A stretch of 64,000 nt of DNA from an uncultured Bacteroidales bacterium (GTDB lineage: Bacteria; Bacteroidota; Bacteroidia; Bacteroidales; VadinHA17). A program made the translations under genes and the position numbers. Positions 2,955 to 63,303 of the stretch are shown here, in pieces (the first letter of the stretch is position 1; each line of letters starts with the position of its first letter). The notes under the pieces are model-generated. The model worked only from the letters and a program-made list of their open reading frames with translations, was not told the DNA's origin and did not search any database. The stretch lies in contig CAVOWZ010000001.1 of NCBI GenBank assembly GCA_963700275.1, positions 344,151 through 408,150 of the forward strand, in the 5' to 3' direction.

Positions 2955-3112
2955 TATTGTACGGGCGTTGAATGCAACGACCCAGCGATATCCGGAATAT
3001 TGCATGGGAATATTCGTTGAACGGGCTTTGCATGCAACGCTCCAACGGTAACCGGGATATTGCATGGGATTATTCGTAAACGGGCATTGCATGCAACGCC
3101 CCTACGAATTTT
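2955..3112 (+). repeat. REP2 tandem repeats, about 2.5 units of 59-60 bp
   Basis: The unit acgggc(a/g/t)ttg(c/a)atgcaacg...attgcatggga(a/t)tattcgt recurs. The core gggcattgcatgcaacgccc is a near-perfect 20-bp palindrome. Confidence 0.8.
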
Positions 3113-3257: not shown

Positions 3258-4277
3258 ATGGCCACTTTCTTCAAACAGGCGGGAGATAAGATCCAGTGCA
3301 TACTTTGTCCCCATAATTGCATGATTGGAGATGGCAATTCAGGAATATGCGGAGCAAGAAGGAACAACAGCGGTTCAGTTGAGTTGATTACCTATGGTGT
3401 AATATCGAGCTATGCTCTGGATCCGATCGAGAAAAAGCCATTGTACCATTTTTACCCCGGAACAAATATTCTGTCGATAGGTTCCTATGGCTGCAACATG
3501 AAGTGCGACTTCTGCCAGAACTACAGCATTTCCCAGCAGAAGGCAGCAGGGTTTGTTACCCGGACCGACCCCGAACAGATCGTAAAAAATGCCCTTGAAG
3601 CACTTCATAACATCGGGATAGCATTTACATACAATGAACCTGTTATCTGGCTTGAATATATAAGGGATGTAGCCCTGCTGGCAAAGAATAATGGCCTGCG
3701 GACCGTGATGGTGAGTAACGGATATGTCAACAGGGAACCTCTTGAAGAGTTCATTTCCTTTACCGATGCATTCAATATTGATCTGAAAGCATTTAACAAC
3801 GACTTTTACAGGCGTCTTACAGGGGCTGACATCGAACCGGTAAAGGAATCATTGAGAATTATTGCCAGGTCGGGCAGACACCTCGAGATAACAACTCTTA
3901 TTATACCCGGGCAGAACGACAGTGAAGAGGAGATGACGATGGAGACAGAATGGATAGCAGGTGAACTTGGTAATGATATCCCCTTCCATCTCAGCCGTTA
4001 CTTCCCCATGTATAAAAGGGAGGATCCGGCAACAACCGGGGTAAAACTTACAAAGCTGGCAGAAACAGCCTCAAAAAATCTGCGATATGTTTATGTCGGC
4101 AACCTTGTCTCCGAAACCGGCCAGAATACAGTTTGCCCGCAGTGCGGCAAAACAGTGACTAGAAGATCAGGATATAATATTAAAATTCTGAATCTTGATC
4201 AGAAGGGCAATTGTAAAAGCTGCGGAACGCAGATTTACAAACATTTCACCTCCTTCCCGCATTCAAGCAGGAACTGA
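3258..4277 (+). CDS. amrS: AmmeMemoRadiSam-system radical SAM enzyme (PFL-activase-like)
   Basis: N-terminal Cys-rich CILCPHNC...GICG, radical SAM motif GCNMKCDFCQN, and a C-terminal CPQCG...CKSCG zinc ribbon. Start chosen at MATFFKQ. Confidence 0.75.
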   Translation: MATFFKQAGDKIQCILCPHNCMIGDGNSGICGARRNNSGSVELITYGVISSYALDPIEKKPLYHFYPGTNILSIGSYGCNMKCDFCQNYSISQQKAAGFVTRTDPEQIVKNALEALHNIGIAFTYNEPVIWLEYIRDVALLAKNNGLRTVMVSNGYVNREPLEEFISFTDAFNIDLKAFNNDFYRRLTGADIEPVKESLRIIARSGRHLEITTLIIPGQNDSEEEMTMETEWIAGELGNDIPFHLSRYFPMYKREDPATTGVKLTKLAETASKNLRYVYVGNLVSETGQNTVCPQCGKTVTRRSGYNIKILNLDQKGNCKSCGTQIYKHFTSFPHSSRN

Positions 4278-4344
4278 CAAATCTGATTTTTGACACTTCG
4301 AAAATTCATTATCAGCTCCCTATAGTACTAAATGCCTCATGGGG

Positions 4345-4671
4345 CATAGCCGTCAACCTACGTAGTTTTGGGGACAAAAGTTTCCCCTCCTATTTTTAAG
4401 GAGGGGTGGCCAGACTACGAAGTCATCTAACGATCAGAAATCTAAATGGTCTGGCCGGGGTGGTTGACTCAATATGAGAAATAAGTCCACTCCTGCTGAA
4501 TCCGTTTAACCACCCCGGCCGGGAAAGCAGAATTGTAACCATTTTTAAATCAGCAATCCCGGCCACCCCTCCTTAAAAAAAGGAGGGAAACTTATTTGTA
4601 TATAAACCAGGCTATTACACTAGTTTTCGTTACTAAAATATTCCTTGGGTTGACGGCTATGCCCTATACCC
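4345..4671 (+). mobile_element. MITE-like nested-palindrome element, copy A (non-coding derivative of the DUF559 element)
   Basis: TIRs catagccgtcaacc / ggttgacggctatg. Internal modules cccctcc-loop-ggaggggtggccagac...gtctggccggggtggtt, then a core, then aaccaccccggccggg...cccggccacccctcc-loop-ggaggg. Confidence 0.85.
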
Positions 4672-4713
4672 CTAAATCCCCCAGCAGAACAAACGAACAC
4701 CGAATTAAGAAGT

Positions 4714-5562
4714 TCATTCCACCCTGAACTGTCTTACACTCTCTTCCGCTTTTATTATGTAGAGTCTTCTCAATTCACTTATCAGAGGTACCTTTACATT
4801 GAACTTCTTATCATCGATGTGCGAAAAAGGAAGTACCATCGGGGATGTTCCTGTCATAAAAACGGCCTCATATTCTGAGAGCCGGTCAGCTTTGACACAG
4901 CCCATTTTAACCATAATATTGTTTTCGGTGCAGATATCGAGGATATGCTTTCGGGTTATGCCGCAAAGGATAACATTTTCGGGGGCAGTAACGAGATGAT
5001 CTTTCCCCAGAAAAAATATATTTGAACGGCTCCCTTCTGTTACCTGCCCATTTTCATTAACAAGAAGAGCTTCATAACCACCATCAAGTATGAGCTTATG
5101 AAAAATTGATGATCTCAGCTTATGATTAATGACTTTTGAACCCGGATCTTTTCTTTCGGCATAGTACAAGATCCCTTTCACCCCTTCTCTGTACTGTTTT
5201 TCAGTAGGGTAGATTGGTTCTATATAATAAATAAGATAGTTGAAGGAGTCTTTATTGTAATTAAAGACAATCTTCAGATTAACTTCCTTCTTCCGGTCAG
5301 CCTTTGTAAGATTTAAAATATCCCTTTTAAGTGTTTCTTTTTCAGCCAGCATCTGTTTTTTCTGGTTCCTTACGCTTGATTCAAGCCGTTCCATATGATC
5401 ATAGAAAAAGACGGGGGTATTCCTGATCATCCTGATAACTTCATATACCGAATCGCCCTCATAAACAAGGGTATTATCGAAAGAGTCGGCCTGTTCAAGT
5501 TTACCATTAAGAATATACTTCCTTCCGAAACACTCATTCATATTTATGTCATTTGTCAACAA
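4714..5562 (-). CDS. Aminotransferase class IV (BCAT / aminodeoxychorismate lyase-like)
   Basis: 282 aa. The EGSRSNIFF...VTAP...ILCGITR pattern is typical of fold-type IV PLP enzymes. Confidence 0.7.
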   Translation of the reverse strand: MLTNDINMNECFGRKYILNGKLEQADSFDNTLVYEGDSVYEVIRMIRNTPVFFYDHMERLESSVRNQKKQMLAEKETLKRDILNLTKADRKKEVNLKIVFNYNKDSFNYLIYYIEPIYPTEKQYREGVKGILYYAERKDPGSKVINHKLRSSIFHKLILDGGYEALLVNENGQVTEGSRSNIFFLGKDHLVTAPENVILCGITRKHILDICTENNIMVKMGCVKADRLSEYEAVFMTGTSPMVLPFSHIDDKKFNVKVPLISELRRLYIIKAEESVRQFRVE

Positions 5563-5637
5563 ATTTACTAACTATTAGCCACTCTGCCCGCTTTTCTGAC
5601 TATATTCGTGAATGTTTAAGCCGGCGCATATTTCAGA

Positions 5638-7008
5638 ATGTACGCAATAATTGATATTGAGACCACCGGAGGAAGTTCCAGGCTTGAAAGGATAACGGAA
5701 ATTGCCGTTTACCTGCATGATGGTAAAAAAATTACGGGTGAATATGCCACACTTATAAATCCCGAAAGAAACATACCTTATTTTATAACCAACCTTACCG
5801 GTATTACGAACGAGATGGTGGAAAATGCACCCCGGTTTTATGAAATTGCCCGGACTATTGTGGAGATTACTGAAGGCAGGACTTTCGTTGCTCATAACGC
5901 AAGGTTCGATTATTCATTTATAAGACAGGAATTTAAATCGTTAGGATATAATTATAAAAGAAGTATCCTTGATACTGTTTCCCTTAGCAGAAGGCTTTTT
6001 CCCGGATACCGTTCATATAGTCTTGGAAATATCTGCAGGGAGTTAAAGATTGGCATTAACGACAGGCACAGGGCAGCCGGGGATGCTATGGCAACCGTAA
6101 AACTCTTCGAGCTGCTGATTGAAAAAGACATGGAGCTGAATTGCGGCAGGTCAAGCCTGATGAAGAATACAAGGATCTCAAAGCTTAATCCCGGACTGGA
6201 TCTGTTAAAAGTTGAAGCGATACCTGAGGAACCGGGAATATATTATTTTTACAATGAACGCGGTGATCTCATATATATTGGAAAGAGCAGGAATCTGCAG
6301 CAAAGGATAAGCACTCATCTTTCAAATAATACAACAAACCGGGCAATGGAAATGCGCGACCTCATTGCTGACATAAGCTGGGAGGCTACAGGAAGCGAGC
6401 TTATTGCGCTTTTAAGGGAATCGTTCGAGATCAAGGATAATAAGCCGGTCTATAACAGGGCGCAGAGGAGGTCATCGTTCCAGTGGGGTATTTATACTAC
6501 AACAGATAAAAACGGGTACATTCACTTCAGCTTCCTTCCTGTGACAAGTGAAGAAAATCCACTTTCGGTTTTCACCTCAAGGGAAAGAGCCAGGTCGAAA
6601 CTGGAATCACTAACCGGGAAATATAATCTCTGCCAGAAGCTCACCGGCCTTTATGAATGTGACGGACCATGTTTTCAGCATCATGTTGGTATCTGCAGGG
6701 GAGCGTGCTGCGGAAAAGAAACAACAGCAGATTATAATTGTCGCGCTGTGAAAGCTATTGAGGAATTTGTTTTTTTACGGCGAAATTTTTTAATAATCGA
6801 CAAAGGCAGGAATGATGAGGAGAAAAGCGCCATCAAGATCATTAATGGCAAGTATGCCGGGTATGGGTATTTCAACATAAATGATATCGGATTCGGGCTG
6901 AATGCCGTACACGACTGCATAAAAACAGCACAGGATAACATAGATATACAGGTCATCCTTAAACAATATCTCCGCAGCAATAAAGTGGAGAAAATTATTG
7001 AATTCTGA
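5638..7008 (+). CDS. DnaQ-like 3'-5' exonuclease fused to a GIY-YIG nuclease domain
   Basis: N-terminal IIDIETTG (ExoI), HNARFD and H..AGDA motifs, followed by GIYYFYNERGDLIYIGKSRNLQQRI (GIY-YIG). Confidence 0.8.
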   Translation: MYAIIDIETTGGSSRLERITEIAVYLHDGKKITGEYATLINPERNIPYFITNLTGITNEMVENAPRFYEIARTIVEITEGRTFVAHNARFDYSFIRQEFKSLGYNYKRSILDTVSLSRRLFPGYRSYSLGNICRELKIGINDRHRAAGDAMATVKLFELLIEKDMELNCGRSSLMKNTRISKLNPGLDLLKVEAIPEEPGIYYFYNERGDLIYIGKSRNLQQRISTHLSNNTTNRAMEMRDLIADISWEATGSELIALLRESFEIKDNKPVYNRAQRRSSFQWGIYTTTDKNGYIHFSFLPVTSEENPLSVFTSRERARSKLESLTGKYNLCQKLTGLYECDGPCFQHHVGICRGACCGKETTADYNCRAVKAIEEFVFLRRNFLIIDKGRNDEEKSAIKIINGKYAGYGYFNINDIGFGLNAVHDCIKTAQDNIDIQVILKQYLRSNKVEKIIEF

Positions 7009-14422: not shown

Positions 14423-14740
14423 CATTGCCGTCAACCTTAGGAGTTTTGGGGACAATAGTTTCCCCTCCTTTTTTTAGGGAGGGGTGGCCAGACTACAAAA
14501 TCATCTGACGTGCAGAAATATAAATGGTCTGGCCGGGGTGGTTGATTTAAGTCTGAGAAATTAGTCCTCTTCTGATGAATCCGTTTCAACCACCCCGGCC
14601 GGGAAAGTAGAATTGTAAACATTCTAAAATCAGCAATCCCGGCCACCCCTCCTTTAAAAGGAGGGGAAACTTATTTGTTTATAAAACAGATAATTACAGT
14701 AGTTCTCATTATCAAAATATTCCTTAAGTTGACGGTTATG
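14423..14740 (+). mobile_element. MITE-like nested-palindrome element, copy B
   Basis: Collinear with copy A over its full length (by eye roughly 85-90 percent identical). TIRs cattgccgtcaacc / agttgacggttatg. Confidence 0.85.
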
Positions 14741-16478: not shown

Positions 16479-16535
16479 GCTAGGGCTGGCAAAGCAAAAC
16501 GCAGAGCGCAGGGTTTAGACCTGAGGCTTGAGAGC

Positions 16536-17056
16536 CTAGCCGTCAGACTAAGGAGTTTTGGGGATAAAAGTTTGAACAATTTCGGGTTCCTGAAACACAA
16601 ACCTGTTCTCGAACCTTAGAACAGTGAATCCCAATGCTTCAAGATATTTGTCCCTGGTAATATCTTTCAGGATCTGTATTGAATCCCCATGAGGATCTCC
16701 ATCAAGTTCAATTATCAGCTTTTCTGATGGACAATAGAAATCAACTATATAATTACCGATACTTTGCTGTCTTCTGAATTTTCTTCCTTCAAGATTCTTT
16801 GACTTTAGGTATTTCCATAAAACAGATTCAGCAGAAGTGGACTTATTTCTCAGATATGTTCTGAGCGGTTTGAGACTTTTTCGGTTGAAGAGGTGATTGT
16901 TATCCATTAAAATAAAAGTAATAAGAAAATAGATCAACCACCCCGGCCAGAAAATTTATATTTCTGCACGTTAGATGATTTTGTGGTCTGGCCACCCCTC
17001 CTTAAAAAAAGGAGGGGAAACTTTTGTGCCCAAAACTACGTAGGTTTACGGATATG
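16536..17056 (-). mobile_element. Gene-bearing (putatively autonomous) member of the MITE family, copy C
   Basis: Same TIRs and 5' hairpin module as copies A, B, E and F, but it encloses the DUF559 ORF. The ORF stop and last codons lie inside the TIR. Confidence 0.75.
16548..16907 (-). CDS. DUF559 endonuclease-domain protein (Vsr / PD-(D/E)xK-like fold)
   Basis: LRNKSTSAESVLWKYLK...YIVDFYCPSEKLIIELDGDPH...VLRF is the DUF559 signature. ATG at 16907 preferred over the TTG at 16937, which lies in the hairpin module. Confidence 0.85.
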   Translation of the reverse strand: MDNNHLFNRKSLKPLRTYLRNKSTSAESVLWKYLKSKNLEGRKFRRQQSIGNYIVDFYCPSEKLIIELDGDPHGDSIQILKDITRDKYLEALGFTVLRFENRFVFQEPEIVQTFIPKTP

Positions 17057-27715: not shown

Positions 27716-29100
27716 TTTGTCTTTTTTACGTATTTCTTTGAAACAGGTCTACCCATATTTGTAAATTTATGTACTTTCCAGTCTTGAACTGTATCCCCGT
27801 CTACATCATCAAAATAATATGTTTTTTGAACAACTGAAGAATCCGATTCTTTCCCTTCAGATTTATAATCATACTCATTCTTTTCCGATTCTTTAGTATA
27901 CTTTTTCACAAGAGGATTGTTTTGAATGAGTTCTTGATTATTCCCAGCTTTTTCCTTAATAATATCTTTATCCTCTGTTCCCTCGTAACTTTCATTTGAT
28001 CGGACATAATTATGTAATGCTGGATCGGTCAGATGAGCGCTACTTGCTTTTGCGATATCTTCAAGAATCTGCTGGTCAACATTTCTTATCATCCAATTTT
28101 CGAAATTTGTGGCATTTCTTACTTTACGTTCATAAGTATTACCTAATAAAAAATAATCAATTCTATTACCCAAAATCCATAGCCAACTATGAGATGATTG
28201 ATTTGGGGGATTTCTCTCTGCAACAACTACTACTTCTGGTAGTTTAATTGTGTCTATTAATCCAAATAGATCGATGAAGCGGATAGGGTTGTTCTTCACA
28301 TAGTTGTAAGGAGAAAGGTTTAGGCGGTATTCTGCCAATGGATCAGGCATATGCCACCTTCCAATTTGTGGATCGTACATCCTTGCGCCGTAATCGTAAA
28401 GGTCAAGATTCACGCCGCCAAGAAGGTTATTCTGAAATTCCTTACCGTTGTGAAGATATCTGTTGTCACTTGTTGCCGTCGTCTGAGGCTTATGAAGCAT
28501 ACCGAAAGGATAATAATCATCCTGCTGCACAATAACTCCTGTTGTTGAAGGCACATTAAATGACACTCTTGTACTGCCAAGGTGATCCTTCATGAAATAC
28601 TCATACGTATATGTTCCTGCTGAATTTGTTGCCCTCTCCTCCTGTGTAAGGATGTATTTCACCGCTATCCCGTTTGCTGTGCCGTCTAATGTGTAAACAT
28701 AGTTCCCAAAGTACAGAAGTGTTGTCCCTGTTGAAAGCCTCTGCTTCAGCTTTTCTCCTACCGAGGTATAAACATATTCTATCTTGTTTGCCGGGGTAAT
28801 AGTGTCGCTGATCCTTGCAGGAAGGTTAAGATAATTATACACGGTCTTCATCCTCTTGTTCCTGTTGAGCCACATGTTACCATTCTTATCGTAATAATAT
28901 TCCTTGTTAGTGTAACCGTTTGTAGCATCATAAAAATCACTCCTCCCTGCAATATCCGGTACTGAGTCAGCTATGGATCTAACCTGGTTACCCATACCAG
29001 TATACTTAAATGTAAGGCTGTCAAGCCTTCCAAACGATCCGGTGGCAATCTGACCTGACCTCAGGAGTTTGAGTATATTCCCGTTTTTATCATATGTCAT
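27712..29100 (-). CDS. Orphan RHS/YD-repeat C-terminal cassette (5'-truncated core plus a distinct C-terminal toxin domain)
   Basis: YD repeats nearly identical to the large RHS ORF, core-end motif NNPIRFIDLFGL, then about 183 aa of unrelated C-terminal sequence. Confidence 0.8.
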   Translation of the reverse strand: MTYDKNGNILKLLRSGQIATGSFGRLDSLTFKYTGMGNQVRSIADSVPDIAGRSDFYDATNGYTNKEYYYDKNGNMWLNRNKRMKTVYNYLNLPARISDTITPANKIEYVYTSVGEKLKQRLSTGTTLLYFGNYVYTLDGTANGIAVKYILTQEERATNSAGTYTYEYFMKDHLGSTRVSFNVPSTTGVIVQQDDYYPFGMLHKPQTTATSDNRYLHNGKEFQNNLLGGVNLDLYDYGARMYDPQIGRWHMPDPLAEYRLNLSPYNYVKNNPIRFIDLFGLIDTIKLPEVVVVAERNPPNQSSHSWLWILGNRIDYFLLGNTYERKVRNATNFENWMIRNVDQQILEDIAKASSAHLTDPALHNYVRSNESYEGTEDKDIIKEKAGNNQELIQNNPLVKKYTKESEKNEYDYKSEGKESDSSVVQKTYYFDDVDGDTVQDWKVHKFTNMGRPVSKKYVKKTK

Positions 29101-29345
29101 GATCTCACGATACCTGTTGACATTGGTAGTATACGAGATACCCTCCCCATATCTGGAAGTTGTCAGCCTGTTTAACTGGTCATAAATAAAACCGTATCCT
29201 TTCTGTGCAGACCCTGAACTACCGTTTTTCCACTTTATACCGCTAATGAAGCTCTCTTACTTTTGTAACAGCAGGTTTGTTCCTGAGTCTACCGAAAGCG
29301 CTGTTATTCGGGAAATCGGTATCGATAGTATATGTATAGTTCGCC
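29101..29345 (-). pseudogene. Out-of-frame upstream remnant of the orphan RHS core, with an internal deletion scar
   Basis: 29101-29245 aligns to about 31275-31425, and 29250-29345 aligns to about 31950-32050 of the large RHS ORF. About 0.5 kb is missing between them. Confidence 0.7.
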
Positions 29346-29745: not shown

Positions 29746-32631
29746 TTAATTGTTAAAATCATCTTCAAGTTTACTCAAATCCAAAGGTTTGGTAGATTTA
29801 TTCTGTTTGGATGGCTTTTTATCCCTTGACTGGACATTGGGTAAGGAGTTAAAATTAGGTGCATTTTCTGGTTTGGTAGCATGTAGAATATTATTCAAAT
29901 AATTCTGCACTTGTTCCCCAAAATTCATATTACTATTCGGGTCAAAATAGTTTGCTCCAAAATCAGCACCGTATTTATCACTTGGTAGATCTTCGTAGCT
30001 ATATTTTGAATATTTTGGATCAAATCTTTCTTGCATATACCCTTCTTGAACCGCTTCTCCAACAGGATTTAAACCAGCCTGGTTCAGATAGTACATTTGT
30101 ATTTCAGGTGTCATTCTGGAAAAATCATCACTGTAAACCTTTTCCTGAGTTTGTATCTTAGTTTGTTTATATGTATAGGCCCTACCTGAATAAAACACAA
30201 AATGAGCTATATCTATCCATCCTCCTTTTTCAGTATAAATATACCTGTTGTTACCAGCCTCATTAAATGGAGCTGTGTTTGCAGGTCTTGGTCCTTTCAT
30301 AGTCATTTGACTTTGTCCCATACGTAGCATGGCTGAATGAGCCGATCTTCCAGATGTTAAACCAATTTTAGTTTCAATATTATTCATAAAACGCAATAGG
30401 CCTTCTACAGTTCCAGCTAAAGGTTTAATAGGTTCTTGTCCATCAGGGTCAATCAGAGAAATGGGATTATTAGCTACATAAGTATATGGGGAAATACCAA
30501 AGTATTTCTCAGCTGATTGGTCAACAACCAAAAACCTTCCTATTTGCGGGTCCATAAAGCGGCTACCATAGTCGTATAGATCAAGATTCAGACCTCCAAT
30601 AAGATTGTTTTGGAACTCTTTACCATTGAAGAGGTACCTGTTGTCACTTGTAGTAGTCGCCTGAGGCTTATGAAGCATTCCGAAAGGATAATAATCATCC
30701 TGCTGCACAATAACTGCTGTTGTTGAAGGCACATTAAATGACACTCTTGTACTGCCAAGGTGATCTTTCATGAAATACTCGTAAGTGTATGTTCCTGCTG
30801 AATTTGTTGCCCTTCCCTCCTGAGTGAGGATATATTTCACCGCTATCCCGTTTGCTGTGCCGTCCAATGTGTATACATAGTTTCCAAAGTACAGAAGTGT
30901 TGTCCCTGTTGAAAGCCTCTGCTTTAGCTTTTCTCCTGCTGAAGTATAAACATATTCTATCTTGTTTGCCGGGGTAATTGTGTCACTTATCCTTGCAGGA
31001 AGATTAAGGCAATTGTACACGGTCTTCATCCTCTTGTTCCTGTCGAGCCACATGTTACCGTTTTTATCGTAATAGTATTCCTTATTTGTGCATCCGTTTG
31101 TGGCATCATAAAAGTCACCTCTCCCTGCAACATCTGGTACCGAGTCAGCGATTGACCTTACCTGGTTTCCCATCCCAGTATATTTATATGTCAGACTGTC
31201 AAGCCTTCCAAACGATCCGGTGGCTATCTGCCCTGACCTCAGGAGTTTGAGTATATTCCCGTTTTTATCATATGCCATGATCTCACGATACCTGTTAACA
31301 TTGGTAGCATAAGAGATACCCTCCCCATATCTGGAAGTTGTCAGCCTGTTCACCTGATCATAAATAAAACCGTATCCTTTCTGAGTGGATCCCGAACTTC
31401 CGTTCTTCCATTTTATACCACTTATATTACCATTATATGCTGCTGCACCGTTCATGGCCGTTCCGTTTAGAGCTGCAAAGCCTTCATCGTACAGAAGTTC
31501 TGCGCCGAAAAAGTCGCCCTCTCCTCCGCTAAGGTCAGGCTCGTTGATCTTCTTAAGCCAGCCTTTAATGTTATAAGTATAATCGATTTTCTGTAATCCT
31601 GTCCCCGACGTTACATGAAGCTTCTTTGTAAGCAGTTGTCCGAGTTCGTTGTACGAAATATTTGATATGTTCCTTTCCGTGCCTGAGTTTATTTTATGAT
31701 ATATGTTTGCCAGTCTTCCCTGGTGGTCATATTCATTTCTTGTCAGCACATAATTTGTAAGTGTCGTTGCCCCCTGCACAACTGTCTGGCTCTCTTTGCT
31801 CTTTACGAGCCATCCCGGGAAATTTACCTCATTGGTCACAAGGTTGCTCCCTCCCTGTATTCCCGTTGTTTTTGTCTGGATTATCCTGTAACGTTTATCG
31901 TAAAAAGTTGCGGTGGTAAACCATACCTCGGAACTGCTTGCGGGGTCTAGCTCTTTTACTTTTGTAACAGCAGGTTTATTCCTGAGTCTACCGAATGCGC
32001 TGTTATTCGGGAAATCGGCATCAGTAGTATAAGTGTAGTTCGCAGAACCGTCATTGTTTATATCATAATCATCATAATAGGTTACTGTCAGATAGGTCTT
32101 TGTAAATGTAGAATTCGGGAAAGAGTTTTGAGTATAATAATGATGTGTGGAACTTGTGGTTCTTGTTTCATACAGGTTCGTCCCTGAATATGCGTTTACT
32201 GCTGTCTGCATCTGGACCCGTGTATTGGCCGACTGGATTGTCCCGGTAAGGATTGGCCGGTTCAACTCATCATACTTGGTAAACAACCATTCTTTGGGTG
32301 ACTTTACACGCTGTTCCCCGTCCTGGGTGGCAATAAGCCTGTCGCGACGGTCATAAACCATCAATACCGAATCTGCACCTGGAAGCTTCTTTACTACCAT
32401 TCTCTGCCTCTTATCGTACCTGTAAATATAGCATAAACTGGCCAGATCGCCAGCTGCAAGAAATTCATTACCGCTACTAAAGGTATGAACGATTTCGCAG
32501 AAAATCTTAAAAAATGCAGGACGCAGAAGGGGGATATCCCAGGAAGAGATCTCTAAAAAATAAGCATTCACCCGGTTCAGTTTTCCAGGTATGAAAGAGG
32601 GCAGAGTGTACCCTCTATTGAAGTCGTTCAA
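29746..32631 (-). CDS. RHS/YD-repeat protein, 5'-truncated (no N-terminal delivery domain), with a C-terminal toxin domain
   Basis: Many YD-type repeats (YDxxGRL, YxYDKNGN) and core end NNPISLIDPDGQ. The first ~25 codons of the ORF are read-through of an opposite-strand HTH pseudogene, and RHS homology begins near 32500. Confidence 0.8.
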   Translation of the reverse strand: MNDFNRGYTLPSFIPGKLNRVNAYFLEISSWDIPLLRPAFFKIFCEIVHTFSSGNEFLAAGDLASLCYIYRYDKRQRMVVKKLPGADSVLMVYDRRDRLIATQDGEQRVKSPKEWLFTKYDELNRPILTGTIQSANTRVQMQTAVNAYSGTNLYETRTTSSTHHYYTQNSFPNSTFTKTYLTVTYYDDYDINNDGSANYTYTTDADFPNNSAFGRLRNKPAVTKVKELDPASSSEVWFTTATFYDKRYRIIQTKTTGIQGGSNLVTNEVNFPGWLVKSKESQTVVQGATTLTNYVLTRNEYDHQGRLANIYHKINSGTERNISNISYNELGQLLTKKLHVTSGTGLQKIDYTYNIKGWLKKINEPDLSGGEGDFFGAELLYDEGFAALNGTAMNGAAAYNGNISGIKWKNGSSGSTQKGYGFIYDQVNRLTTSRYGEGISYATNVNRYREIMAYDKNGNILKLLRSGQIATGSFGRLDSLTYKYTGMGNQVRSIADSVPDVAGRGDFYDATNGCTNKEYYYDKNGNMWLDRNKRMKTVYNCLNLPARISDTITPANKIEYVYTSAGEKLKQRLSTGTTLLYFGNYVYTLDGTANGIAVKYILTQEGRATNSAGTYTYEYFMKDHLGSTRVSFNVPSTTAVIVQQDDYYPFGMLHKPQATTTSDNRYLFNGKEFQNNLIGGLNLDLYDYGSRFMDPQIGRFLVVDQSAEKYFGISPYTYVANNPISLIDPDGQEPIKPLAGTVEGLLRFMNNIETKIGLTSGRSAHSAMLRMGQSQMTMKGPRPANTAPFNEAGNNRYIYTEKGGWIDIAHFVFYSGRAYTYKQTKIQTQEKVYSDDFSRMTPEIQMYYLNQAGLNPVGEAVQEGYMQERFDPKYSKYSYEDLPSDKYGADFGANYFDPNSNMNFGEQVQNYLNNILHATKPENAPNFNSLPNVQSRDKKPSKQNKSTKPLDLSKLEDDFNN

Positions 32632-34809: not shown

Positions 34810-34943
34810 CATAGCCTTCAACCTAAGGACTTTTAGGGACAAAAGTTTCCCCTCCTTTTTAAGGAGGGGAAACTTATTTGCCTATAATCCAGATAATTAC
34901 AGTAGTTTCCGTTATTAAAATATTCATTAAGTTGACGGCTATG
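34810..34943 (+). mobile_element. Minimal derivative of the MITE family, copy D
   Basis: Both TIRs (catagccttcaacc / gttgacggctatg) and a single cccctcc-loop-ggagggg hairpin. Everything between the two hairpins of the long copies is absent. Confidence 0.8.
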
Positions 34944-59364: not shown

Positions 59365-59646
59365 CATAACCGTAAACGTAAGGAGTTTTGGGGGCAGAGT
59401 TTCCCCTCCTTTTTTTAAGGAGGGGTGGCCGGGATGGCTGATTTTGAAATGTTTACAATTCTGCTTTCCCGGCCGGGGTGGTTAAAACGGATTCAGCAGA
59501 AAGGACTAATTTCTCAGGATTACATCAACCACCCCGGCCAGATCATTTATATTTCTGCACGTCAGATGATTTTGTTGTCTGGCCACCCCTCCTTAAAAAA
59601 AGGAGGGGAAAGTTATATCCCTAAAACTCTTTGAGTTGCCGACTGG
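59365..59646 (-). mobile_element. MITE-like nested-palindrome element, copy E (symmetric-end subtype)
   Basis: The reverse complement is collinear with copy A through both hairpin modules and the core. Both ends are of the agttttgggg...agtttcccctcc type. Confidence 0.85.
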
Positions 59647-63083: not shown

Positions 63084-63303
63084 CATGGCCGAAACCTAAG
63101 GAGGTTTGGGATTTAAGTTTCCCCTCCTTTTTTCAAGGAGGGGTGGCCGGGATTGCTGATTTTGAAAAGTTTACAATTATGCCTTCCCGGCCGGGGTGGT
63201 TAAAACGGATTCAGGAGAAGTGAACTAATCTCTCAGAATTACATCAACCACCCCGGCCAGAATATTTACATTTCTTCACGTTAGACGATTTTGTGGTCTG
63301 GCC
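63084..63303 (-). mobile_element. MITE-like element, copy F, truncated at 63303
   Basis: Collinear with copy E from the TIR catggccgaaacc to gtctggcc. The final acccctcc hairpin and TIR are missing. Confidence 0.8.

Follow-up and report, generated by a model that had tools for sequence, protein, structure and literature searches.

The closest described relatives of the element reported here are the IS231 insertion sequences (IS) of the Bacillus cereus group and their MIC231 cassettes. IS231-subgroup ends have the form CAT-------AA--TAA--- and are accompanied by direct repeats of 10 to 12 bp (PMC2266710 Table 1, a review of the IS4 family), the target of IS231A being GGGNNNNNCCC with an 11-bp duplication (PMC2577343 Table 1). 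The IS231 transposase acts in trans on MIC231 cassettes with shared inverted repeats (PMC6199540). The family described below has in common with MIC231 and IS231 the CAT-------AA--TAA ends, the lack of an internal transposase, the single passenger, a structured region adjoining the left end, the existence of full-length IS with matching ends, and duplications of ca. 10 to 11 bp at targets flanked by G/C triplets. It differs in its host, which belongs to the Bacteroidales and not to Bacillus, and in its cognate transposases, only ca. 30% identical to that of IS231F; trans-mobilization here would be by analogy. The passenger is also different, a DUF559 nuclease gene with a composite hairpin arm on either side, the two being inverted, and this cassette, unlike MIC231, has given rise to a large family of MITEs through internal deletions.

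Other known elements resemble it in part. IS-derived bacterial MITEs are likewise short and non-coding (134 to 430 bp in the copies seen here), with TIRs, target duplications, strong fold-back, an intergenic location, and a high copy number, but the immediate parent here is a nuclease-gene cassette rather than a transposase-bearing IS, and the remnants inside the short copies are pieces of the passenger. REP/REPIN sequences and their RAYT genes share the small gene flanked by inverted GC-rich hairpins, the dispersed gene-less hairpin doublets, and the use of hairpins as favored targets of IS110-type elements. The original prediction had proposed an analogy with this system, which breaks down at the defining enzyme. 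RAYTs are of the Y1/HUH type, whereas the gene flanked here is DUF559 and no enzyme of the Y1/HUH type is encoded within the element; the single IS200-like Y1 gene that we saw (locus L081) was an independent insertion into a hairpin. In addition, the mobile unit has IS231-type ends and ca. 10-bp duplications, and we know of no REPINs with either. A selfish context for this kind of nuclease is provided by the Vsr-fold (EDxHD) homing endonuclease I-Bth0305I, which we take to have the same broad fold as DUF559. Homing endonucleases use one conserved recognition site, usually in connection with an intron or intein, and lack TIRs and target duplications, whereas the insertion sites found here were many and varied and the gene-less copies kept different remnants of the gene.

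The whole stretch of DNA that we analyzed (64 kb, referred to as the window) contained one gene-bearing copy and five gene-less relatives, whose features were as follows.

16535 to 17056, minus strand: gene-bearing MIC, 522 bp, 3′-truncated compared with the ca. 720 to 795 bp of full-length relatives
17039 to 17056, minus strand: left TIR (IRL type) on the gene-upstream side, CATATCCGTAAACCTACG, with 3 mismatches to the consensus CATAGCCGTCAACCTAAG and fitting the IS231 end signature
16995 to 17017, minus strand: outer hairpin CCCCTCC-loop-GGAGGGG, adjoining the left end
16936 to 17001, minus strand: 5′ arm, consisting of GGAGGGGTGGCC, the stem-loop GGCCAGAC..TCTGGCC, and GGCCGGGGTGGTT
16548 to 16907, minus strand: passenger gene for a predicted DUF559 (Vsr-fold / PD-(D/E)XK) endonuclease, 119 aa, with Pfam and PDB matches
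16820 to 16855, minus strand: codons for approximately YLRNKSTSAESVL, kept as the 36-nt core of window MITEs
16535 to 16552, plus strand: right TIR (IRR type), CCTAGCCGTCAGACTAAG, with the stop codon within the overlap
4345 to 4661 (end also given as 4671), plus strand: MITE with both termini, both arms, and a 36-nt gene remnant
14423 to 14740, plus strand: MITE whose flanks GGGGTGAGGG and GGGGCAAGGG agree at 8/10 positions, a possible decayed target duplication
34810 to 34943, plus strand: short MITE of 134 bp, with its two termini and one CCCCTCC hairpin but with the arms deleted
59365 to 59646, minus strand: MITE sharing the short 3′-end type of the gene-bearing copy, its 5′ terminus degenerate
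63084 to 63303, minus strand: 5′-truncated MITE without left terminus and outer hairpin

Read in the sense of the gene, the unit at 16535 to 17056 runs from the left terminus through the CCCCTCC/GGAGGGG hairpin, the arm, and the DUF559 gene to the right terminus. The original prediction of a TIR-bounded unit carrying a DUF559 gene and a hairpin module was borne out: imperfect TIRs were present at 16535 to 16552 and 17039 to 17056 (the low end one base before the 16536 first given), the last DUF559 codons (..IPKTP*) with the stop fell within the low-coordinate TIR, and the CCCCTCC/GGAGGGG, GGCCAGAC/GTCTGGCC, and GGCCGGGGTGGTT components were all found. The C-terminus of DUF559 in this copy has been replaced by terminal-repeat-derived sequence and, compared with full-length relatives, ca. 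13 C-terminal codons and the entire 3′ hairpin arm are gone. This 3′ truncation was absent from the original description. Since Rfam at gathering thresholds matched no family in the entire 64-kb window, the hairpin module corresponds to no described RNA.

The five gene-less copies that had been predicted were all recovered, the one at 63084 to 63303 without its 5′ end. They measure 134 to 327 bp and are built of the left part of the cassette, a 34- to 36-nt remnant of the gene, an inverted second arm, and the right terminus, the arms being deleted in the copy at 34810 to 34943. Because the second arm is inverted, such copies fold as a long nested cruciform, as illustrated by the MITE at 14423 to 14740 (DNA minimum free energy of −66.2 kcal/mol, z = −8.9 against shuffles). 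The homology between the ca. 36-nt core and DUF559 codons, another element of the prediction, was confirmed, with positions 4472 to 4507 being 92% complementary to 16820 to 16855 over 36 nt (33/36), and it agreed with the longer and different gene pieces kept by copies elsewhere. MITEs in related loci retained residues 1 to 42 (L044), 42 to 76 (L042), 17 to 49 (L102), or 1 to 27 (L109), while in the MITE of L071 nothing was left of the gene but its start codon region and final ca. 15 nt. A full-length parent, with 90% protein identity, is found in L116, and its 3′ half closely resembles that of the window MITEs. Judging by this deletion series across loci, which goes beyond the single 36-nt match, the short copies are independent internal-deletion derivatives, with varied breakpoints, of a gene-bearing cassette, and their predicted descent from a gene-bearing parent stands. 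The five gene-less relatives of the unit at 16535 to 17056 have the characteristics of MITEs, namely, short non-coding copies with TIRs, several of them present together, and a longer parent.

The family consensus CATAGCCGTCAACCTAAG agrees with the IS231-subgroup signature at 8/8 fixed positions. In IS231F, from plasmid pBtoxis, the terminus is CATGCCCATCAACTTAAGAAT with an 11-bp duplication, and a Bacteroidales sub-lineage with the end CATGCGCGTCAACTTAAGAAT (L057, L009:7026) shares 19/21 bases with it. On this signature, we assign the family termini to the IS231 subgroup of the IS4 family. Target duplications abutting the termini were scored at lengths (n) of 9 to 11 bp, with n − 1 matches or better, in 29 copies with both termini. 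Seven of the 29 reached this threshold, i.e., clean duplications accompanied only about one-quarter of the complete copies elsewhere, and five further copies had partial ones. Those of L098 (CCCCTACGGG, 10/10), L110 (GGATTTAGGG, 10/10), L009 (CCCTTCAGG, 9/9), and L058 (AGATCCGGG, 9/9) were perfect, and those of L095 (9/10), L006 (9/10), and L113 (10/11) were imperfect. When left and right flanks were taken from different elements, the control rate for any one length (9, 10, or 11 bp) was 0.1 to 0.7%. Two of these targets also exist as uninterrupted paralogous copies, that of L095 ca. 80 nt upstream in the same locus and that of L098 in L057, which serve as empty sites. The duplicated MIC and MITE sites were flanked by G/C triplets, in line with the GGG(N)5CCC-like target and the 10- to 12-bp repeats of IS231, although some duplications were 9 bp long, slightly below the published range. 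Within the window, duplications were weak, the best being the 8/10 match at 14423 to 14740, and the gene-bearing copy had none.

Outside the window, a search of one genome of each species with an 18-mer taken from the arm returned at least 111 8-kb blocks. About 70 of them belonged to uncultured Bacteroidales or Bacteroidota genome bins, and at least 36 blocks came from one bin. Among the matches listed, the window and 70 related 8-kb Bacteroidales blocks held 91 element intervals; a complete DUF559 gene was present in seven (ca. 8%) and larger gene fragments in five more. Intact gene-bearing copies measure ca. 711 to 795 bp (L054, 5095 to 5818; L110; L112, 3822 to 4532; L113, 3818 to 4542), the one in L116 being longer owing to the insertion of another element, and in these relatives a pair of inverted GC-rich hairpin arms, within the termini, encloses the gene. 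The 149 arms in these loci fell into two main types of stem, some of them with compensatory changes, and the arms were conserved in gene-less copies too. A terminus-like sequence was found within 160 nt of 83 of the 120 arm ends, mostly at a fixed distance of ca. 35 or ca. 75 nt (4% in controls), and many of the remaining arm ends showed deleted variants of the terminus. The arms therefore appear not to spread without IS231-type ends, and a REPIN-like spread of the arms alone was rejected on the same grounds.

In related loci, other insertion sequences have inserted into the outer hairpin. “Solo” termini were considered as candidate transposase sites and discarded, since each proved to belong to a MITE or MIC that an unrelated insertion had interrupted, IS50-like in L071, L087, and L116, IS200-like in L081, and carrying an IS110 transposase and a GIY-YIG gene in L006 and L098. 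Orthologous blocks from different bins (e.g., L044 and L072) had intergenic DNA too diverged to align for a comparison of filled and empty sites. In a plasmid collection, neither a DNA match to the cassette nor Bacteroidota relatives of IS231 were detected, and viral contigs gave no match to the terminus.

In tblastn searches with IS231F and 150 relatives, no IS231-like transposase was found in the 64-kb window or, among the matches listed, in ca. 650 kb of Bacteroidales blocks sampled around MITEs, and for this reason the search for a partner was extended outward to metagenomes. IS231F matched 633 clusters at E ≤ 1e-30 when searched against cluster representatives (50% identity), a wide spread for a subgroup that in 2008 was described as nearly confined to the Bacillus cereus group. 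The named representatives in the first batch of these matches were Firmicutes. An alignment of 84 full-length IS231-like representatives, with invariant D, D, E, and K columns, was converted into a profile and scanned against metagenome contigs. Many of the single-ORF elements returned, 1.6 to 1.9 kb long, bear the termini of our family: the end matched at 18/18 bases in L121 and closely in L128, L125, L132, L131, L124, and L151, and the right end of L125 shares 21/22 bases with that of a window MITE. Duplications of 10 bp were seen at L131 (10/10), L130, and L199 to L204. These autonomous partners encode IS4-family DDE transposases of 436 to 472 aa and come from metagenomes and Bacteroidia genome bins.

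A search with the transposase of L128 led to P0429, named “IS4 family transposase [Bacteroidia bacterium],” which scored 232.5 bits against the NCBIfam IS4 model (cut-off, 115). Its identity to IS231F is 30% (E = 8e-60), with a shared RWQIE..FKTWKS motif. The partner elements, and not the window, have as their single ORF a gene for a DDE transposase that shows the Y(2)R(3)E(6)K motif (YKIRWQIELMFKTWKS in P0429). The IS encoding P0429 is 1,595 bp long, has the ends CATAGCCGTCAACTTAGT and CATAGCCGTCAACTTAAG with the 10-bp duplication GTGGAGACAC, and was found in identical copies on more than 20 contigs, of which two belong to NCBI genome bins. In L130, an IS231-like IS sits inside an arm-type hairpin, so both kinds of sequence are found on one contig. 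From the match of the termini, cognate autonomous IS exist in Bacteroidia, although none was located in the 64 kb searched of the window's own genome. The original prediction had associated no known transposase family with the element; the IS231-subgroup ends and these full-length Bacteroidia IS with an IS4-family DDE transposase speak against that statement.

The passenger ORF (16548 to 16937, minus strand) matched Pfam DUF559 (PF04480) with E = 2.9e-32. Its true start is likely the ATG at 16907, giving a product of 119 aa that is 100% identical to the database protein P0001. The sole match in a PDB sequence search was 3HRL (E = 1.5e-22), an uncharacterized endonuclease-like protein that is the nearest solved relative of the cassette protein. 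As predicted, the window copy retains the VDF..ELDGDPHG catalytic-type motif (VDF...ELDG..H), which is conserved in 10 of the 11 cassette copies. The passenger is accordingly best described as a predicted DUF559 / Vsr-like PD-(D/E)XK endonuclease. It is the only ORF within the element, as well as the only one there recognized by Pfam, and all of the close homologues examined (11/11) were flanked by the same hairpin arms. Identical cassette proteins recurred across many samples, and homologues were often located on contigs of ca. 1 kb. The median pairwise dN/dS of the 11 cassette copies was 0.14, so the cargo is under clear purifying selection and is not decaying. Because of this value, the conserved motif, and the compensatory variants of the arms, some function is evidently selected, for either the host or the cassette; it could be repair, defense, transcription insulation, or help in excision. 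A weak partial match to DpdF given by PADLOC (E = 1e-7) was not accepted as a sign of a defense system.

Taken together, the IS231 ends, the 9- to 11-bp duplications, and the autonomous IS partners lead us to consider the element, with high confidence, an IS231-type MIC with derived MITEs, moved in trans by an IS231-like transposase and carrying DUF559 as cargo. The attributes of a MIC are present, i.e., two TIRs of an IS family, no internal transposase gene, and one passenger, and duplications of the length produced by the parent IS were found in related loci (7/29), those of the window being weak. The proposed mechanism starts from a cassette with two IS231-type (IS4 family) TIRs, without a transposase gene and with DUF559 as its one passenger, from which the five gene-less MITEs arose by internal deletion. 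Elsewhere in the cell, a full-length IS would supply a DDE transposase of the IS231-like kind that moves MIC and MITEs in trans. This transposase would bind the CATAGCCGTCAAC(C/T)TAAG ends, excise the element, and reinsert it through a staggered cut of ca. 10 bp, preferably at targets flanked by G/C triplets. Selection would maintain DUF559 because of a different advantage, either for the host or for the cassette, and the protein would probably take no part in the movement. From the ends and duplications we infer that the family is mobile, and an IS231-like transposase presumably is, or was, encoded in this genome. Of the autonomous/non-autonomous pair in the original prediction, one half survives: the gene-less copies are derivatives, but since the ends, the duplications, and the transposase-bearing IS all match, the pair would be formed by the IS and the MIC or MITE rather than by a DUF559 element and the MITE. 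A pure cargo model leaves unexplained the purifying selection on the passenger and the conservation of the arms in gene-less copies.

The same two facts are among the points in favor of an active role of DUF559. In the original prediction, it was the mobilizing enzyme itself, recognizing TIRs or arms and spreading gene-bearing and gene-less copies alike in a REP/RAYT-like system with a different enzyme. In favor of this reading, the gene is selected, is the sole ORF of its element, and in 11/11 close homologues bears the same arms; these arms are kept in MITEs (some with compensatory stem changes), and no transposase was found nearby in the window and the Bacteroidales blocks, among the matches listed. 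We consider this very unlikely, as the termini are of the IS231 type and match those of transposase-bearing IS, the duplications of 9 to 11 bp are as expected for staggered DDE strand transfer, and the IS4-family DDE partners also point elsewhere. The protein is encoded by only ca. 8% of the copies (among the matches listed), and the gene-less copies, far from being pristine empty sites, were produced by deletions whose breakpoints vary. Moreover, we know of no strand-transfer activity in hydrolytic nucleases of the PD-(D/E)XK fold, which also counts against DUF559 as the mobilizer. Somewhat less remote, yet still improbable, is a two-layer element in which the gene and its paired arms form a selfish module captured between IS231-type ends, with both transposase and DUF559 shaping its spread, for example, by nicking of the arm hairpins by the nuclease, promoting gene conversion or copy gain. 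We see only a slim chance that DUF559 acts on the arms, by structure-specific nicking or, during excision, through a helper cut of the TnsA-like kind, and so aids spread or retention instead of being neutral cargo. The conserved, structured arms and the median dN/dS of 0.14 would fit two layers, as would the arm-type hairpin of L130, which has no IS231-type termini of its own nearby, and the copies in L117 and L118, where arms and gene are kept while the termini are degenerate or unrecognizable. However, most arm ends carry an IS231-type terminus or its deleted remnant at a fixed distance, precise “empty” arm pairs lacking the gene were not seen (all gene-less copies retain gene remnants), and such an activity of DUF559 has no known biochemical precedent.

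A fossil family, left inactive after a burst long ago and with apparent duplications that match only by coincidence in intergenic sequence rich in G/C, is the reading to which we give least credit. Many termini are indeed degenerate, most copies lack clean duplications, the gene-bearing copy of the window is truncated, and no transposase was found nearby, but clean duplications were far more common than in shuffled pairs of the same G/C-rich flanks, and two targets have uninterrupted paralogous copies. Fossils would also hardly be expected to include identical cassette proteins in many samples, with homologues often on ca. 1-kb contigs, or an identical cognate 1,595-bp IS on more than 20 contigs.

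With cassettes and MITEs of the IS231 type, probably mobilized in trans, as the preferred reading, what had appeared to be a new mobility mechanism is reassigned to a known one, and a false lead toward DUF559 is avoided. Novel are the Bacteroidales host lineage, the DUF559 passenger, and the GC-rich hairpin arms, which come in pairs and draw in other insertion sequences. The literature searched contained no account of a cassette with DUF559 as its cargo. By the look of its sequences, the IS231 subgroup is active in Bacteroidia, and the MIC architecture reaches a high copy number in Bacteroidales, as seen from the six copies that the 64-kb window holds and from a single bin that yielded at least 36 8-kb blocks. 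It is a puzzle that a Vsr-fold nuclease should travel as cargo and yet be under purifying selection. Many of the small genes annotated as “very-short-patch-repair endonuclease” on ca. 1-kb contigs of soil metagenomes may be passengers of such cassettes, which could account for the assembly breaks there.

The loop of the CCCCTCC/GGAGGGG hairpin, the outer hairpin beside the left terminus of the DUF559 cassettes and their gene-less MITE derivatives, is a recurrent target of a separate, IS50-like insertion sequence, found there at four related sequence loci (L071, L116, L087, and L063). This insertion sequence has the termini GCTMATCTTTC... and ...AAAGATKAGC, produces a 7-bp duplication (TTGAAAA or TTTTGAA), and encodes a transposase of 494 to 498 aa with the domains Tnp_DNA_bind and DDE_Tnp_1. 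The same loop is also occupied by IS110-type elements (L006, L098, and L107), which carry an IS110-type DEDD transposase and a GIY-YIG nuclease gene in place of the IS50-like transposase and the ends of which resemble those of the IS50-like element. Insertions in or around the hairpins were located as follows.

L071, 4553-6945: IS50-like element in the hairpin loop
L116, ~196-2300: IS50-like element in the hairpin loop
L006, ~4328-6535: IS110-type and GIY-YIG element in the hairpin loop
L098, ~4600-6840: IS110-type and GIY-YIG element in the hairpin loop
L081, 4608-5420: IS200-like Y1 (HUH) transposase unit (157 aa) inserted into a MITE's right hairpin
L110, ~5750-5830, and L006, ~3770-3860: ~80-nt nested repeat
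L130 (a metagenome contig), 74-1700: arm-type hairpin module interrupted by an autonomous IS231-like element (112-1675)

The IS200-like unit has GAAAAGGAG at each side, and the IS231-like element is flanked by a 10-bp duplication, GCTAGCTAGC. Two cassettes from different genomes contain the ~80-nt repeat, GGGGACCGACCG..TTGCCCAGTGGGCAA..GGGGCCAGCCTGCAGGGG, nested within their hairpin loop.

Six MITE copies in a single related bin, CAWDYR01 (L004, L020, L030, L082, L094, and L097), have a common defective terminus, CATAGCCAAAGA, without GTCAACCT, and an outer flank of ~45 nt in common, which suggests that they are nested inside, or have spread together with, another repeat. A short motif, GGGGATTTAGGGG / CCCCTAAATCCCC, repeatedly adjoins elements (window ~4672-4690; flanks of L023, L110, and L012) and is the duplicated target in L110.

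Cassette or MITE sequence also appeared on contigs labeled Chloroflexota (L118, GC 42%) and delta proteobacterium (L055), for which mis-binning seems likelier than cross-phylum transfer.

Other repeats in the window were the following.

123-424: 5.8 tandem copies of a 52-nt repeat with 92% matches and an internal TCCC..GGGA hairpin
53161-53211: single dispersed copy of the 52-nt repeat
2957-3107: 60-nt tandem repeat, 2.5 copies, GC-rich hairpins (GGGCRTTGMATGCAACGCCCC)
28388-28687 and 30566-30865: direct repeat pair
29250-29344 and 31949-32043: direct repeat pair

The direct repeats, with 88 to 92% identity and a spacing of ~2.2 to 2.7 kb, are probably neighboring paralogous genes.
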